Shown: piece after piece, positions 1 to 5,075 of the stretch
Layout: each line of letters opens with the position of its first letter
Position numbering within the stretch: position 1 is the first letter of the stretch
Source of the DNA: Candidatus Omnitrophota bacterium
Lineage (GTDB): Bacteria > Omnitrophota > Gorgyraeia > Gygaellales > UBA12090
Reading direction: 5' to 3'
NCBI GenBank assembly: GCA_030674475.1
Contig: JAUSCZ010000017.1
Coordinates: forward strand, 110,755-174,754
DNA: 64,000 nt
Made by a program: the position numbers and the translations under genes
Notes under the pieces: generated by a model
What the model was told of the DNA's origin: nothing
The model's database searches: none
Seen by the model: the letters and a program-made list of their open reading frames with translations, nothing else

Positions 1-1137
1 AATCGTAAAAATTCTCTTCTAATCCTACTGAAGCCTGCCAGTCCTTCTTTTTCTTATAGCTTATCTTTACTTCCAGGGTTTGTTTTTGATAATCATTAGC
101 CGGCTTTAAATTGTATTTCACCTCTTTATGTTCAATGGCAAAATCCAGCCAGAGCCTTTGCCTTTGGTCATCTAAAAGTTCATAATCCCAGCTATTCTGA
201 AGATAAAAACCCCGGTGGTCTAGGTCGGCGCTAATATAATCCTTGGCGAAATATTGATATTTCAGGTGTGTTTTTAGCTTGGGACTAATTCTATGCTCAC
301 TTTTGGCATAATATTGCCAATATTCAAAATCCATATCTTCATCTCTATCTTCTTCATCTTTCGTATCCCTCTGGCCCCAGTCTAACCTGGAAACAAGCCT
401 ATAAATCCAGGGAAGCTTAAATTGATAATCAAAGCCCGTACCAATTTCCTGTTTAGTCTTTTCACGGTTGGCCTTTTCCTGCTCCAACCGCTCTACCTTA
501 TAAGAAGAAAGCAGGGCTAATCTTTTTTCTAAAAAGTGCTTCTGGGCTCCCAGGCCGGCTAATGTTTTAAATTGGTCCTTTTCTCCTTCGGCTAAATAAT
601 CAAAATTATCCACTCCTAAGTTAAAATCAATTCTATAATTATCCTTTTCCTCAAAGATAAGCCCGGGAACCAGGCCAATCTCATCATATTCGCTCGCCGG
701 GCTGTTTTTGTAACGTCTCTGCCTATTTTTAAGCTTCACATCAAGCCTTATCCACTCTTCCTCAAGCTTCTTTAAGTTATAGAACAAACCGGCCTTAAAG
801 ATTCTGGAAACGTTATCTAAAGAATCCCGGGCTTTATAGTCTTTACGATAAACAAACGAACTAACATCGTAATTTAACGGCTGGGATATCCTTTGTTCAA
901 GCTTGAGATGATAATTCTGATAGCTATAGTCTTCATCCGTATCCTCTTCCGCGAAATCCTCCGCCTGAGACCTCCTGCCCACCTCCCCGTAGCCGCTAAA
1001 AACAAAATCCTCCGCCTTCGCTGAAGCGCCTGCCTGCCGGTCAGGCAGGTTTTCTCCTTCAGTCAAAGCGGAGGAATCCGCCTGGGCCATATAAGGCAAA
1101 AATAAAAATCCCACCGTGAGAATAAAAATTATTTTCA
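1..1137 (-). CDS. Secreted protein, partial (C-terminus lies beyond the window start). N-terminal signal peptide MKIIFILTVGFLFLPYMAQA followed by a D/E/Y/K-rich region; possibly an outer-membrane beta-barrel-like protein.
   Basis: Manual reverse translation gives an ATG at 1137 and an open frame running to position 1. It is absent from the ORF track because no stop lies in the window. The hydrophobic signal peptide is followed by an AQA cleavage-like site. Confidence 0.4.
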
Positions 1138-1177: not shown

Positions 1178-1699
1178 CTAAATCTCGACTATATCAATCT
1201 TGGCGCCTAATTCACTAGTTATCTTTCTTAAAGTAAGTAAAGAAATATTTTCTCTGCCACTTTCAATCCGGGAAATTATCTGTTGAGAAACTTTTAACTT
1301 ATCCGCCAGCGCGTTCTGGGTAAGATTATTCTGTTTACGCAGTAACCTAAGCCTGCCGCCTACCGATAAACAAAACCCATTAATCGGCTTGGCCTTATTC
1401 CTTAACAATATACCTCTGTTATTCCCGCGGTATTTCTCCAGTATTTTCTCATATACAGCCTGCCAAAATCCTATCCGCGGGCTTTGCCAGGCATCCTTTC
1501 GCATCCTTTTTTTAATCTCATTCCAATGAAGGCAGAAATCCCGAGGTTTGAGATGATCCCGAAAAACTTCCCGGGGAATATTCTTCCTGCTAAGCAGCAA
1601 TGCGGCCAAGACAATAAATTTCGGATGTTCCGGATCGCCTAAAATTTTCTGTGCTTGTTTAGGGCTTATATTTCTATCCCACAACCAATCCTTATTCAT
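1178..1699 (-). CDS. XRE-family helix-turn-helix DNA-binding protein (HTH at the C-terminus). Likely regulator/antitoxin partner of the upstream nucleotidyltransferase.
   Basis: The C-terminal segment LRKQNNLTQNALADKLKVSQQIISRIESGRENISLLTLRKI matches the HTH_XRE pattern. Its start overlaps the upstream gene by 4 bp (ATGA), which suggests translational coupling. Confidence 0.6.
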   Translation of the reverse strand: MNKDWLWDRNISPKQAQKILGDPEHPKFIVLAALLLSRKNIPREVFRDHLKPRDFCLHWNEIKKRMRKDAWQSPRIGFWQAVYEKILEKYRGNNRGILLRNKAKPINGFCLSVGGRLRLLRKQNNLTQNALADKLKVSQQIISRIESGRENISLLTLRKITSELGAKIDIVEI

Positions 1700-2409
1700 A
1701 CTCTGCCTATCTGACTTTCCAAGATACGATCTATTTCAACCTTAAAATGCTTCTCCATTGCCCTATAATCAACTCTATTTTCAGTTTTTAACTCTAGGAT
1801 ACCGCTTTTAATCTCCAGGCGCGGATAGCTTCTGAACCAATTTATCAGTGCCTCCCGCATTGCCGGATTACAATATTTACGGGCGAACACAGACAAATTC
1901 ATAAAGGTATGAGAAAGAAAATACAGGTCATAAAAATCCTTGGCCTCCTGCCGGCCTCCGATTCTTATCTTACGCCCAATCTGGTCAAGGCTTTCCAGCG
2001 TCCCGGAAACCGCGTAAACCTTGCGCAGGTAAATATCCTCCAGCGAAAAAACCTCTATCCCTTTAAACTGCCTTGCCGGTTTTAATCTTTTTATATAATC
2101 CTCTATAAAATCAACCTTCAGCGAATACTTAGGGGATAGGCGCGCGTTAGAAACTAATATGCGAACTTTATCCTTCTTAGGTTGCTCTTTGAGTATTTCA
2201 AAATCCTTGCCTGATTCCTTTGATAAAAACTCAAGCAAAGAAATGATCTCTTTGCGGTTGTATCTCTGGGCAAAAAAGTCTAGATCAAAAGACATGCGGT
2301 GATTAAAATAAAATTTAGACAACGCCGTTCCTCCGCCTAAACAATAGTTATCGAGCCTGCCGGAAAGAATTCTCAAGACCTTATCCTGCCACGATACAAT
2401 CGTCTTCAT
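1696..2409 (-). CDS. Nucleotidyltransferase of the AbiEii/AbiGii toxin family (DUF1814/PF08843-like).
   Basis: The N-terminal motif LGGGTALSKFYFNHRMSFDLDFF matches the GGTAL...R.S.D.D core of AbiEii nucleotidyltransferases. It is first in a two-gene operon with the HTH protein. Confidence 0.65.
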   Translation of the reverse strand: MKTIVSWQDKVLRILSGRLDNYCLGGGTALSKFYFNHRMSFDLDFFAQRYNRKEIISLLEFLSKESGKDFEILKEQPKKDKVRILVSNARLSPKYSLKVDFIEDYIKRLKPARQFKGIEVFSLEDIYLRKVYAVSGTLESLDQIGRKIRIGGRQEAKDFYDLYFLSHTFMNLSVFARKYCNPAMREALINWFRSYPRLEIKSGILELKTENRVDYRAMEKHFKVEIDRILESQIGRV

Positions 2410-2415
2410 AATCTA

Positions 2416-2508
2416 AATATACAACATATATGTTGTAATGTCAAGAATTATACAACTTATATGTTGTAATACACAAAATAATTATAACACGGCTTCTTTG
2501 GCTGTCAA
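2416..2508 (-). promoter_or_regulatory. Promoter region of the AbiEii-HTH operon. Two sigma70-like promoters are overlaid by two copies of the 18-bp palindrome TACAAC(A/T)TATATGTTGTA.
   Basis: The perfect palindrome TACAACATATATGTTGTA is at 2420-2437. The near-perfect copy TACAACTTATATGTTGTA is at 2451-2468, 31 bp centre to centre. On the minus strand, TTGACA-17nt-TATATT has the first palindrome exactly in its spacer. A second TTGACA-16nt-TATAAT lies upstream. Confidence 0.45.
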
Positions 2509-3201
2509 GATTTCTTACACACACAGATAAAAGATATTGCCTTTCTTAAATTGCGGGCTGTTACCGCAAAATCAGCAGTGGTAACCGAATTATAAAATCT
2601 ATTCACCGGCAATCCTATCTTCTTAAGGCGCTGGTAAAGGTGATGCCTGGGTGTTAAATGCAGGCCATAAATCTCAACTCCGGGAAATTGGCTTAACAAT
2701 AATCTTCTCAATTCTTCCAGGATAAATTCCCTGCAATGCGCCGGATTCTTTTTATAGGTCATTGGTGAACCCTTCATTGCGTGTTCTAAATTTAAGGTAG
2801 ACAAATAAAAAGCGCCATCAGGCCTTAAAACCCTCTTTATTTCTGAAAGATACCGCGGGATATCCGGTTCCGGGATATGTTCAATAACCTGAAAGGAACA
2901 GACAATATCAAAAGAACCGTCCTCAAAACACAAGGCCCCCCGCCTCCATAGGGAAGAATTTCAGATTGGGCCTGCCGTATTTAGCCCGCGCCGCGGCGAT
3001 AACCGCCTCGTCGTAATCAAGGGCCGTAACCTCAAAAACCTCCGCCGCCAGATAATCCGCCCCATAGCCATCCCCGCAGCCGACATCCAAAACTTTCTTT
3101 CCACAGGCATCATCTCTCAAGAATTCATAAACCTTGAGATGCTCAGCAAAAAACTTAGGCGCGACCGCCTCCGGAATAATCCTGGTCTCTGGTTTGCGCA
3201 T
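2505..3201 (-). pseudogene. Class I SAM-dependent methyltransferase, split into two ORFs by a frameshift at a C6/G6 homopolymer (2936-2941).
   Basis: ORF 2923..3201 carries motif I, VLDVGCGDGYG. ORF 2505..2933 carries motif II, DGSFDIVCS, in a different frame. The junction lies in the run ggcccccc. Confidence 0.6.
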
Positions 3202-3432: not shown

Positions 3433-3741
3433 TTATAAAATTTTAAAACCTTTTTTAATTTCTCTATTGAGAGGATTATCGTCTTGGAAATCTTTCAGGA
3501 CAATAGGGTGGGGTTCTATACGTAAATCAAAATTTCTCCTAAGCCGCATCAGGTTGGAAAGCTCTTTTATCGTATCTTTATACCCTGCCAATACCAGAGC
3601 AATATCAATATCACTGTCATCGCTAAAATGATTCTTTGCGTATGACCCGAATAAAAAAGCCTCCCTTATTTTATAATAATTATGCGCGGCAAGAAAATGC
3701 ACGTAATCACGGGCTAGCTTTAAAGCAGTTTTCTTATCCAT
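3433..3741 (-). CDS. Minimal nucleotidyltransferase (MNT/MntA-like antitoxin-type NTase). It is an orphan, with no HEPN partner.
   Basis: The motif LFGSYAKNHFSDDSDIDIALV matches the GS...DxD nucleotidyltransferase fold. The downstream neighbour is a PIN remnant, not HEPN. Confidence 0.6.
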   Translation of the reverse strand: MDKKTALKLARDYVHFLAAHNYYKIREAFLFGSYAKNHFSDDSDIDIALVLAGYKDTIKELSNLMRLRRNFDLRIEPHPIVLKDFQDDNPLNREIKKGFKIL

Positions 3742-3842: not shown

Positions 3843-5075
3843 CTAATATATACTGCTTGCGGGAAATACGGTTGTCTTCGCGTCCAAAGGCATAATATCT
3901 TGCGCGAGAGAGAATATCCACTGCTCTATTATATTAAGCTTGCCAACCTTTGCGGTTTCTAATGCTTTAAAAGATTTCACTTTTGCCATCGCTGACAGCT
4001 TTATTTCAGAGGCGATAATCCCCTCTCCGGTTACACAAAAAAGATCTATTTCCAATCCATCCCTTGTTCTATAAAAATAAAAAGGCGCCTCCTTGCCCCT
4101 ATGCCAATAACTTTTTATCAACTCACTAATAACCCAGTTTTCAAACAATGGCCCAGCCATAGGACCGACGCAGACGGAATGATAATCCCTCCAGTAAGTC
4201 AAATAACATAACAAACCCGTATCCAAAAAATACACTTTCGGAGTTTTTATTTCCCTCTTGTTAAGATTGCTGTGATACGGCTTTAGGATATATATCTGAT
4301 ATGTCTTCTCCAATAAACTAATCCAGGATTTAACAGTATTCAATGCCGTTCCTATCTCAGAGGCAAGAGAGGCCATGTTTAAAAGCTGCGCGCTGCGCGC
4401 GGCTAAAAGCCTTAAGAATGCCTCAAAAGTCCTTGAGCTTCTCACCCCCACCTGACTTCTTATATCCCGTTCCAGATAAGTCTGCAGATAGGATGAATAA
4501 TACTGCTCAATGTCAATCCTGCGGTCAATAACCGGCTTCGGCATAGAACCTCGGAGAATAACTTTAAATAATTCCGGCATATTTAAAACCCGGGTTATCC
4601 TTTTGGTCTTATTCATAAAAAAAGGCTTAAGCTTATCCGAAGCAGAATCGCGCGCATACTCATACAGGGAAAAACCCAATAAATTCATTATCGCCACTCT
4701 TCCCGCCAAAGATTCAGATACATTATCCATTAAGGTAAAATTTTGCGAACCGCTCAGCCAGAACAAACCGTTTGCCGGCTTCAATCTTGTAGTCCTTTCA
4801 TCTACCAGCAGCTTTATATAGGTAAGAAGATTCGGGGCATACTGTATCTCATCTATAAACAGGGGAGGTTTAAACCGCTGAAAAAACAGCTTAGGGTCAG
4901 AAATGGCGAGTTCTCTCACAACCAGGTCATCAAGGCTTACAAAACCCATATCCGGCCTGGCAATCTTTCTTAAAAGCGTTGTCTTCCCGGATTGACGCGG
5001 CCCGGTCAACAAAACAACCGGAAACGAACGCGACGCCTTTAATATATAGCTGGCAAGCAAACGATTAATATACAT
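3843..5075 (-). CDS. AAA+ ATPase of the DUF4143 family (ATP-binding protein).
   Basis: Walker A is LLTGPRQSGKTTL. Length and C-terminal region are typical of the DUF4143 ATPase architecture. Confidence 0.65.
   Translation of the reverse strand: MYINRLLASYILKASRSFPVVLLTGPRQSGKTTLLRKIARPDMGFVSLDDLVVRELAISDPKLFFQRFKPPLFIDEIQYAPNLLTYIKLLVDERTTRLKPANGLFWLSGSQNFTLMDNVSESLAGRVAIMNLLGFSLYEYARDSASDKLKPFFMNKTKRITRVLNMPELFKVILRGSMPKPVIDRRIDIEQYYSSYLQTYLERDIRSQVGVRSSRTFEAFLRLLAARSAQLLNMASLASEIGTALNTVKSWISLLEKTYQIYILKPYHSNLNKREIKTPKVYFLDTGLLCYLTYWRDYHSVCVGPMAGPLFENWVISELIKSYWHRGKEAPFYFYRTRDGLEIDLFCVTGEGIIASEIKLSAMAKVKSFKALETAKVGKLNIIEQWIFSLAQDIMPLDAKTTVFPASSIY

Follow-up and report, generated by a model that had tools for sequence, protein, structure and literature searches.

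A putatively toxin-first AbiEii-type nucleotidyltransferase cassette with an uncatalogued XRE-type partner and paired promoter operators in an Omnitrophota contig: a candidate toxin-antitoxin module

The stretch of 64,000 nucleotides analysed here (the window; contig JAUSCZ010000017.1 of a Candidatus Omnitrophota bacterium, positions 110,755 to 174,754) contains, at positions 1178-2508, a two-gene cassette on the minus strand in which a nucleotidyltransferase (NTase) of the AbiEii/DUF1814 type is encoded ahead of a protein with a helix-turn-helix (HTH) domain. The DUF1814 (AbiEii/MenT) toxins rank with the most abundant enzymes of defence and toxin-antitoxin systems, and to our knowledge the regulator or antitoxin gene comes first in every characterised DUF1814 pair, be it an AbiEi-type antitoxin or the small MenA1. 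On the comparative evidence given below, the cassette is likely to be a bicistronic, toxin-first, autorepressed NTase toxin-antitoxin module. The features on which this reading is built are the following (aa, amino acids; ORF, open reading frame).

1696..2409, minus strand: AbiEii/DUF1814-type NTase, putative toxin, 237 aa (PF08843 match, 19 PADLOC AbiEii models)
1178..1699, minus strand: partner protein, 173 aa, N-domain plus XRE HTH, putative antitoxin and autorepressor (ORF overlapping the NTase stop codon, homologues, AlphaFold2 model)
1415..1699, minus strand: N-domain of the partner, about aa 1-95, all-helical, with a WLWDR motif, putatively NTase-binding and neutralising
1193..1378, minus strand: XRE-type HTH domain of the partner, aa 108-169, recognition helix VSQQIISRIE (HTH_3 match)
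2420..2437, strandless: proximal operator O1, TACAAC-ATATAT-GTTGTA, in the promoter spacer and with a 2-nt overlap with the -10 element (palindrome and recurrence)
2451..2468, strandless: distal operator O2, TACAAC-TTATAT-GTTGTA (plus strand), 31 bp upstream of O1 (palindrome and recurrence)
2416..2444, minus strand: conserved promoter, -35 TTGACA at 2444..2439, 17-nt spacer, -10 TATATT at 2421..2416 (promoter scan)

The NTase ORF (2409..1696) is the first gene of the operon; its product begins MKTIVSWQDK...LGGGTALSKFYFNHRMSFDLDFF... and contains LGGGTAL...FDLDFF. The Pfam model AbiEii (PF08843) matched with 62.6 bits (cut-off 22.5) over profile positions 13-225 of 238, and 19 PADLOC AbiEii models matched as well. 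The motifs of the protein are G26-G27...R38-x-S40-x-D42-x-D44, K98-x-D100, K130 and K157-D158-x-x-D161. Regarding their conservation, G26, R38, S40, D42, D44, D100, K130, D158 and D161 were invariant in 76 of 76 loci, whereas K98 was kept in 73 and K157 in 70, with K157 or an arginine preceding motif IV in 75; G27 was invariant in an alignment of 40 sequences, and R153 was invariant or nearly so in both sets. The catalytic acidic residues, on whose presence the first-pass annotation had made its interpretation depend, are thus intact. Motifs I and II of the pol-beta type, for which the pattern hG[GS]-x(n)-DhD and an arginine within motif II have been given (PMC3985639), are present as G26-G27-x14-D42-L-D44 with R38, the spacer between the two motifs being 14 residues by our own count as against the x15 quoted for AbiEii. 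Motif III, a conserved lysine among hydrophobic residues, corresponds to K130 and motif IV (+DxxD) to K157-D158-F-Y-D161, a stretch that aligns to the JHP933 motif. R38, S40, D42 and D44 are in the same register as R63, T65, D67 and D69 of Streptococcus agalactiae AbiEii, and S40 lies two residues before the first catalytic Asp, as do AbiEii T65 and MenT3 S78; this equivalence is taken from the R-x-[ST]-x-D-x-D register and not from a structural superposition. Mutation of each of the AbiEii motifs I-IV abolishes toxicity (PMC3985639), and T65 of S. agalactiae AbiEii is auto-phosphorylated when the antitoxin binds, like MenT3 S78 and MenT1 T39 (bioRxiv 10.64898/2026.01.19.700257). Judged by all of these sequence criteria, the NTase is a member of the AbiEii/DUF1814 family. 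It has 821 full-length relatives. The only solved relative found by sequence was JHP933 of Helicobacter pylori (PDB 4O8S, E=0.02), with a profile of 40 sequences searched against the PDB; MenT and AbiEii chains were not matched by this profile even at E-values up to 10, and a search of the PDB with the single sequence returned noise only.

The second gene overlaps the first by 4 bp (ATGA at 1699..1696). An AbiEii-type NTase followed, with this overlap, by a 173-aa protein with its HTH at the C-terminus is what had been described from the first reading of the DNA, and the ORFs and Pfam matches on the minus strand agree with that description in every respect. HTH_3 (PF01381) matched the partner at aa 117-169 with 51.4 bits (cut-off 23), and the closest sequence relatives of this HTH in the PDB were HipB and controller (C) proteins of restriction-modification (R-M) systems, with E-values between 4e-10 and 4e-8. 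Full-length homologues of the partner numbered 183, mostly from Omnitrophota metagenomes, the best annotation among them being 'XRE family regulator'. The AlphaFold2 model (predicted local distance difference test, pLDDT, 85) places a helical N-domain at aa 13-92 and the HTH at aa 108-164, the two being connected by a disordered linker (aa 96-102). Residues 1-110 yielded no match in Pfam, NCBIfam or PADLOC, and the AbiEi models in Pfam and PADLOC did not match the partner. No PDB relative or fold match was found for the N-domain, MqsA and HigA included, and its sequence contains no CxxC pairs, i.e., zinc-binding cysteines are absent. The N-domain is an uncatalogued helical domain.

The distribution of the cassette was determined in two scans. 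The partner-seeded scan covered one genome per GTDB species and yielded 55 loci with a full-length partner gene; the NTase-seeded scan covered metagenome contigs, in which 27 loci combined an NTase of about 32% identity or more with enough downstream sequence. The NTase gene was found immediately upstream of the partner gene in 49 of the 55 partner-seeded loci, and the partner gene immediately downstream of the NTase gene in all 27 NTase-seeded loci. The NTase-first order is the rule for the family, and the reversal relative to the canonical AbiEi-AbiEii order that had been noted for the cassette extends to the family. The partner-seeded loci came from Omnitrophota, Elusimicrobiota, Margulisiibacteriota/Saganbacteria, one Nitrospirae metagenome-assembled genome (MAG) and MAGs labelled Planctomycetia, the closest of them, at 87%, being that of Omnitrophica WOR_2 GWF2_43_52. 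The 4-bp overlap was present in 44 of 75 loci, and the pairwise identities of NTase and partner were correlated (r=0.84, 76 loci). On three long contigs (loci L001, L003 and L004) an AbiEii gene and then an HTH gene were found between differing, unrelated neighbours. The L001 cassette adjoins a type I R-M system; the neighbours in the window, L003 and L004 are methyltransferases and polysaccharide genes, with no defence island. The cassette is a conserved mobile module of two coupled, co-oriented genes in varied contexts. Searches of INPHARED (phages), IMG/VR (viral contigs) and PLSDB (plasmids) did not find it; the only matches in PLSDB were unspecific HTH hits and a distantly related NTase of Variovorax, without a close homologue of the cassette family.

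The region upstream of the NTase gene carries the two putative operators. O1 is TACAACATATATGTTGTA (2420-2437), a perfect palindrome, and O2 reads TACAACTTATATGTTGTA (2451-2468); the start-to-start spacing is 31 bp. A single palindrome occurring twice, 31 bp apart, had been reported in the first-pass annotation, of which the two copies, the spacing and the identical half-sites were confirmed, but the copies differ at one base of the central N6. When up to three mismatches were allowed, the 18-mer was found twice in the 64-kb window (0.01 occurrences expected by chance, and none of 100 shuffles reached two), and a third copy was absent from the window at the same tolerance. The TTGACA-17-TATATT promoter matches at 11 of 12 positions. 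Of the 17 spacer bases, 16 fall within O1, which also takes in the two leading bases of the -10 element, in keeping with the earlier placement of one palindrome in the spacer of the promoter. Between the -10 element and the ATG at 2409 there are only 6 nt.

This design is not peculiar to the window. The common order upstream of the NTase genes is a distal TACAAC-N6-GTTGTA, about 7 nt, TTGACA, 1 nt, a proximal TACAAC-N6-GTTGTA that runs into TAtaxT, 6-9 nt and the start codon, and it is common to loci whose proteins are just 40-60% identical. The whole layout recurs in about 60 of 75 loci. Regarding its parts in the same 75 loci, 10 or more of the 12 half-site positions matched at the proximal operator in 60 and at the distal one in 56, the operators were spaced by 31 bp in 46 and by 32 bp in 12, TTGACA stood one base ahead of the proximal operator in 56, and the operator ended 10-13 nt from the start codon in 62. 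The partner proteins of a divergent clade (L089, L090, L093, L096, L097, L100 and L101) have the recognition helix xIQQYISKIE instead of xSQQ[ILMV]ISRIE, and this clade carries a single TACTAC/TACTAT-N6-GTAGTA operator at the same place, which in five loci, those whose promoter is clear (L089, L090, L093, L096 and L100), sits between TTGACA and the -10 element. The half-site changes together with the recognition helix, which argues for direct readout. The sequence patterns thus make a strong case for the operators as putative binding sites of the partner's HTH, through which the operon would be autorepressed, and the autoregulated toxin-antitoxin layout suggested earlier for the promoter gains from the recurrence of both palindromes at their positions as well as from the shift of the half-site.

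With the promoter geometry of Escherichia coli, position +1 would fall at or within 3 nt of the start codon, which suggests that the NTase mRNA is probably leaderless. Several loci of the xIQQYISKIE clade, most clearly L093 and L096, have a leader bearing a Shine-Dalgarno sequence and not the leaderless design.

Which of the two genes would be harmful on its own is indicated by the loci that have lost one of them. Six of the 55 partner-seeded loci are without an intact NTase but have kept the partner gene. In L021, L045 and L047 the NTase is excised while both operators, TTGACA and an intact partner are kept, a clear TATATT -10 element being present only in L021; L013 has likewise lost the NTase and has one operator left; L007 has an internal NTase deletion (aa 47-211) but has kept its operators, and in L043 the C-terminal 50 residues are all that is left of the NTase, and one operator remains. 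TTGACA is kept in these three loci as well. A partnerless NTase was found in none of the 27 NTase-seeded loci. In the loci scanned, the partner thus survives without the NTase and not the reverse, which is the asymmetry expected if the NTase is harmful alone; as decay typical of toxin-antitoxin systems, the NTase-only loss is suggestive.

The N-domain was also traced beyond the cassette. A search of 1.84 billion representative proteins with an N-domain profile yielded 135 clusters only, most of them proteins of 165-190 aa composed of N-domain and XRE domain. Standalone N-domain proteins have 84-106 aa, and the one in L152 follows an NTase C-terminus with a 4-bp overlap. Around 15 of the 135 clusters are proteins of roughly 320-1300 aa, and the four large proteins for which full domain scans were made have the architecture N-domain-XRE-Mrr_cat-TPR, two of them with an additional PIN domain. 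Mrr_cat is a restriction-endonuclease domain. The giant partners of L153 (3001-5466), L155 (2238-5825) and L156 (672-4259) are 822-1195 aa long, and the 1195-aa protein of L155 and L156 is the one to which a PIN domain (PIN-TPR-GreABC type) is added. The giant-partner genes of L153 and L155 directly follow an AbiEii NTase gene, and that of L156 a gene of 224 aa, each with a 4-bp overlap; the TACAAC operators are present in L153 too. In the loci read, the N-domain also follows the NTase when it stands alone or is part of a fusion, and it is thereby linked with the NTase rather than with the HTH.

Among more remote short AbiEii NTases (27-35% identity) the partners are different ones, which begin with an [FLVY]WD motif. 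One group comprises small upstream proteins, some of which belong to Pfam DUF6922, and another comprises proteins of about 172-196 aa that are encoded downstream and carry a winged helix at the C-terminus. With hhalign, the N-domain was aligned to the winged-helix partners with 88% probability (E=3e-6), to DUF6922 (a small alignment) with 44% and to a third group of neighbouring partners likewise with 44%; a 'WDYD' partner group received no support. Assignment of the N-domain to DUF6922 was considered and not adopted, given the hhalign value and the absence of any PF21956 match among 25 N-domains even at E-values up to 10. It is conceivable, though doubt prevails, that the N-domain, possibly together with the DUF6922 and 'FWDRD' partners, represents an unrecognised family of portable NTase-neutralising adaptors for short DUF1814 toxins, which would occur by themselves, joined at either end to different DNA-binding domains, or joined to Mrr/TPR/PIN effector arrays. 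Such an adaptor may trigger Ser40 autophosphorylation (type VII, with an unrelated fold), and in the fusions the NTase-adaptor pair would be the control unit of a larger defence machine.

Two further arrangements were observed. In L132 the order is mirrored, in that a protein of 192 aa (1753-2331), which has its XRE HTH at the N-terminus and a DUF6922 domain at the C-terminus, is encoded upstream of a short AbiEii-like NTase (2261-2929). In Variovorax sp. WDL1 plasmid 3 (L157, NZ_LR594691.1, 443335-444635) an AbiEii NTase is followed, with a 4-bp overlap, by a 172-aa protein with an FWSRD-helical part and a winged helix (WP_146039601.1, annotated as hypothetical), and the pair adjoins a tyrosine recombinase. 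The plasmid comes from a cultured organism, and this pair could be a tractable model for toxin-first AbiEii modules.

The mechanism proposed for the cassette would run as follows. The conserved promoter stops 6-9 nt short of the start codon, and the NTase is therefore probably translated from a leaderless start. As predicted from its homology to the AbiEii/MenT family, the NTase would attach nucleotides to the 3' ends of tRNAs and thereby halt growth. The second gene would be translated by coupling via the ATGA overlap, and the N-domain of its product would bind and neutralise the NTase, either by occlusion or by inducing autophosphorylation of Ser40, as has been proposed for AbiEi and MenA. 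A dimer of the XRE HTH would occupy the two TACAAC-N6-GTTGTA operators, which are three helical turns apart and on the same face of the helix, and since one of them fills the spacer between the -35 and -10 elements, the operon is proposed to be negatively autoregulated.

Several observations weigh against this toxin-antitoxin reading, and some of them favour an ordinary regulated enzyme, i.e., an NTase that modifies a small molecule or nucleic acid without toxicity, as ANT(2'')-Ia does in nucleotidylating antibiotics, and a partner that is its transcription factor, with the N-domain as ligand sensor. Among ligand-responsive repressors it is common for a helical N-domain to be linked to an HTH. 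JHP933, the closest solved relative of the NTase in the PDB, is without established toxic activity, and DUF1814 also holds non-toxin enzymes such as ANT(2'')-Ia (bioRxiv 10.64898/2026.01.19.700257). The losses of the NTase are suggestive only, the asymmetry of 6 of 55 against 0 of 27 having a one-sided Fisher probability of about 0.08 by our own calculation; the co-variation of operator and helix amounts to one or two clade-level switches and not to many independent events; and the leaderless start is inferred from an E. coli-type geometry, promoters of the phylum not having been mapped. The absence of the family from the phage, plasmid and viral-contig collections leaves a role in mobile-element maintenance or phage defence unsupported. 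A regulated enzyme is nevertheless improbable. N-domains that lack the HTH still directly follow the NTase, the cassette lies between unrelated flanks in the three loci read, its two genes are translationally coupled and diverge together, the NTase is lost while repressor and promoter are kept, as is typical of toxin-antitoxin decay, and the phospho-acceptor Ser and all motifs essential for the toxins are invariant.

The first-pass annotation had offered a variant type IV toxin-antitoxin or an abortive-infection module as possibilities. The toxin-antitoxin part has received indirect support from the invariant motifs, the differing flanks, the six loci with NTase loss and the lack of partnerless NTases among the 27 loci; the type IV and abortive-infection parts gained no support, and AbiE itself has been proposed to be type VII (bioRxiv 10.64898/2026.01.19.700257). 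In an abortive-infection system the partner would serve mainly as a scaffold for sensing or for effectors and less as a housekeeping antitoxin, the NTase would be set free or activated upon infection, and some lineages would add Mrr-type nuclease, TPR and PIN effectors. Such a role is possible but rather doubtful, and it would extend the toxin-antitoxin reading without excluding it. AbiE is an established abortive-infection system and an abundant defence family (PMC3985639; bioRxiv 10.64898/2026.01.19.700257), the large N-domain-XRE-Mrr_cat-TPR(-PIN) partners, including that of L153 with the same operators, would fit a defence machine, and L001 lies beside the type I R-M system; however, the methyltransferase and polysaccharide genes around the window cassette, L003 and L004 form no defence island, and S. 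agalactiae AbiE was without a phenotype against phages in the conditions tested (bioRxiv 10.64898/2026.01.19.700257). In the converse arrangement the roles would be exchanged, with the NTase as an antitoxin by which a toxic partner is inactivated through covalent modification. Nucleotidyltransferases do act as the antitoxins of type VII HEPN/MNT modules, and an MNT-type gene lies nearby at 3433-3741. This is very improbable for the cassette, since the partner is present in six loci without an intact NTase and so is unlikely to be toxic alone, it bears an autoregulatory HTH typical of antitoxins, and the characterised AbiEii/MenT homologues are the toxins (PMC3985639).

If the cassette is a toxin-antitoxin module as favoured here, it differs from those described. 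The DUF1814 NTase toxins of AbiE and MenAT have been classed as type IV and are now proposed to be type VII. With AbiE of Lactococcus lactis and S. agalactiae and MenAT of Mycobacterium tuberculosis the cassette shares the DUF1814 NTase motifs I-IV, the Ser/Thr two residues before DxD, the bicistronic operon and an antitoxin (putative here) with a DNA-binding and a separate neutralising domain; with AbiE it also shares two inverted repeats over the promoter (PMC3985639). Unlike in these systems, the NTase comes first, where in the DUF1814 pairs described the regulator precedes it (PMC3985639), the partner falls outside COG5340/COG4861 and matches no AbiEi model in Pfam or PADLOC, and the NTase is short (237 aa) and too divergent for a sequence match to the MenT and AbiEii chains in the PDB. 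The partner has an N-terminal neutralising domain (putative) and a C-terminal XRE HTH, whereas AbiE has an N-terminal winged helix, and the operator is an 18-bp palindrome of the form 6-N6-6, whereas the AbiE repeats measure 23 bp. The cassette is accordingly not an AbiE system as defined (Dy et al. 2014, PADLOC), because no AbiEi (COG5340/COG4861) lies upstream and the order is reversed.

In its layout the cassette resembles the toxin-first type II systems with XRE antitoxins, MqsRA and HigBA, in which the toxin gene is first and the genes overlap or are coupled. MqsA, like the partner, has an N-terminal toxin-binding domain (putatively so in the partner) and a C-terminal XRE HTH, which binds two palindromes in its own promoter. 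The toxins of these systems are RelE-like RNases, whereas the toxin candidate of the cassette is a nucleotidyltransferase, and the N-domain differs from MqsA in lacking the zinc-binding cysteines and has no structural match to MqsA or HigA. One member of the fusion family (P0251) gave a weak MqsA_antitoxin match over the HTH, below the Pfam cut-off. The DUF6922 (PF21956) partners accompany NTases of the same broad clade (27-35% identity) and are likewise small and helical with an [FLVY]WD start; they differ in being usually of 68-101 aa, upstream and without an HTH, and their homology to the N-domain is unproven (44%). The 'FW[DS]RD' plus winged-helix partners, such as WP_146039601.1 of Variovorax, are closer in that they are toxin-first, with a 4-bp overlap, about 172 aa and an N-terminal helical plus a C-terminal DNA-binding domain, but the latter is a winged helix (HVO_A0114/TrmB-like) instead of XRE and the NTases are about 30% identical. 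A survey of Pseudomonas aeruginosa listed in-silico 'abiEii-HTH_XRE' and 'abiEii-higA' pairs, flagged as unclassifiable, in which an AbiEii-type gene is likewise joined by an XRE-type HTH gene instead of AbiEi; these are database-level counts only, without gene order, domains, operators or experiments (PMC9424990). The searchable literature on reversed AbiEii order and on toxin-antitoxin systems of Omnitrophota contained no description of the module, two Omnitrophota genome preprints do not mention AbiE, and DUF6922 is named nowhere in the searchable literature.

Antitoxin swapping is a known theme. New here is the partner domain; the regulatory design is clearer than usual, and the fusions to nuclease, TPR and PIN domains came unexpectedly. 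Under the toxin-antitoxin reading, the same toxin scaffold would have recruited a structurally unrelated partner domain that is not catalogued, the genes and the domains would both stand in reversed order, and the cassette would have converged on an MqsRA-like layout. The reading would give a function to the orphan N-domain, and perhaps to Pfam DUF6922, and would account for AbiEii genes of uncultured phyla in whose genomes no AbiEi partner would be recognised; the Mrr/TPR/PIN fusions point to larger systems that are based on this control pair. With two small genes, a pair of 18-bp operators, a consensus promoter and a start that is probably leaderless, the module is compact and lends itself to testing.

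Besides the conserved promoter, the promoter scan returned one further site.

2481..2508, minus strand: extra promoter-like site, TTGACA-16-TATAAT with extended TG, 12/12 positions matching, specific to this window (promoter scan)

This site (2508..2481) overlaps the stop codon of the upstream methyltransferase fragment and was absent from the closest relative, L005, and from the other loci. The start site of this promoter would lie shortly upstream of O2, which would occupy about +6 to +23 of that transcript. A role of the palindromes in RNA structure was considered and set aside, as they lie upstream of the start site of the conserved promoter; an Rfam scan of positions 900-2800 yielded no RNA family.

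Regarding the neighbourhood in the window, the overlapping ORFs 2505-2933 and 2923-3201 (minus strand) match the C- and N-terminal halves, respectively, of a class I S-adenosylmethionine (SAM)-dependent methyltransferase (Methyltransf_11/25/23) and are probably one gene split by a frameshift, be it a pseudogene or a sequencing error. The ORF at 3433-3741 (minus strand) encodes a minimal nucleotidyltransferase of 102 aa (Polbeta/NTP_transf_2, MNT antitoxin type) with no recognisable HEPN partner ORF adjacent to it, and beside it an AAA_14/DUF4143 ATPase is encoded at 3843-5075 (minus strand). Downstream of the end of the HTH gene, a GC-rich hairpin followed by a T-run (1028-1050, plus strand) resembles a terminator and probably terminates a convergent gene that enters from the left edge of the window.

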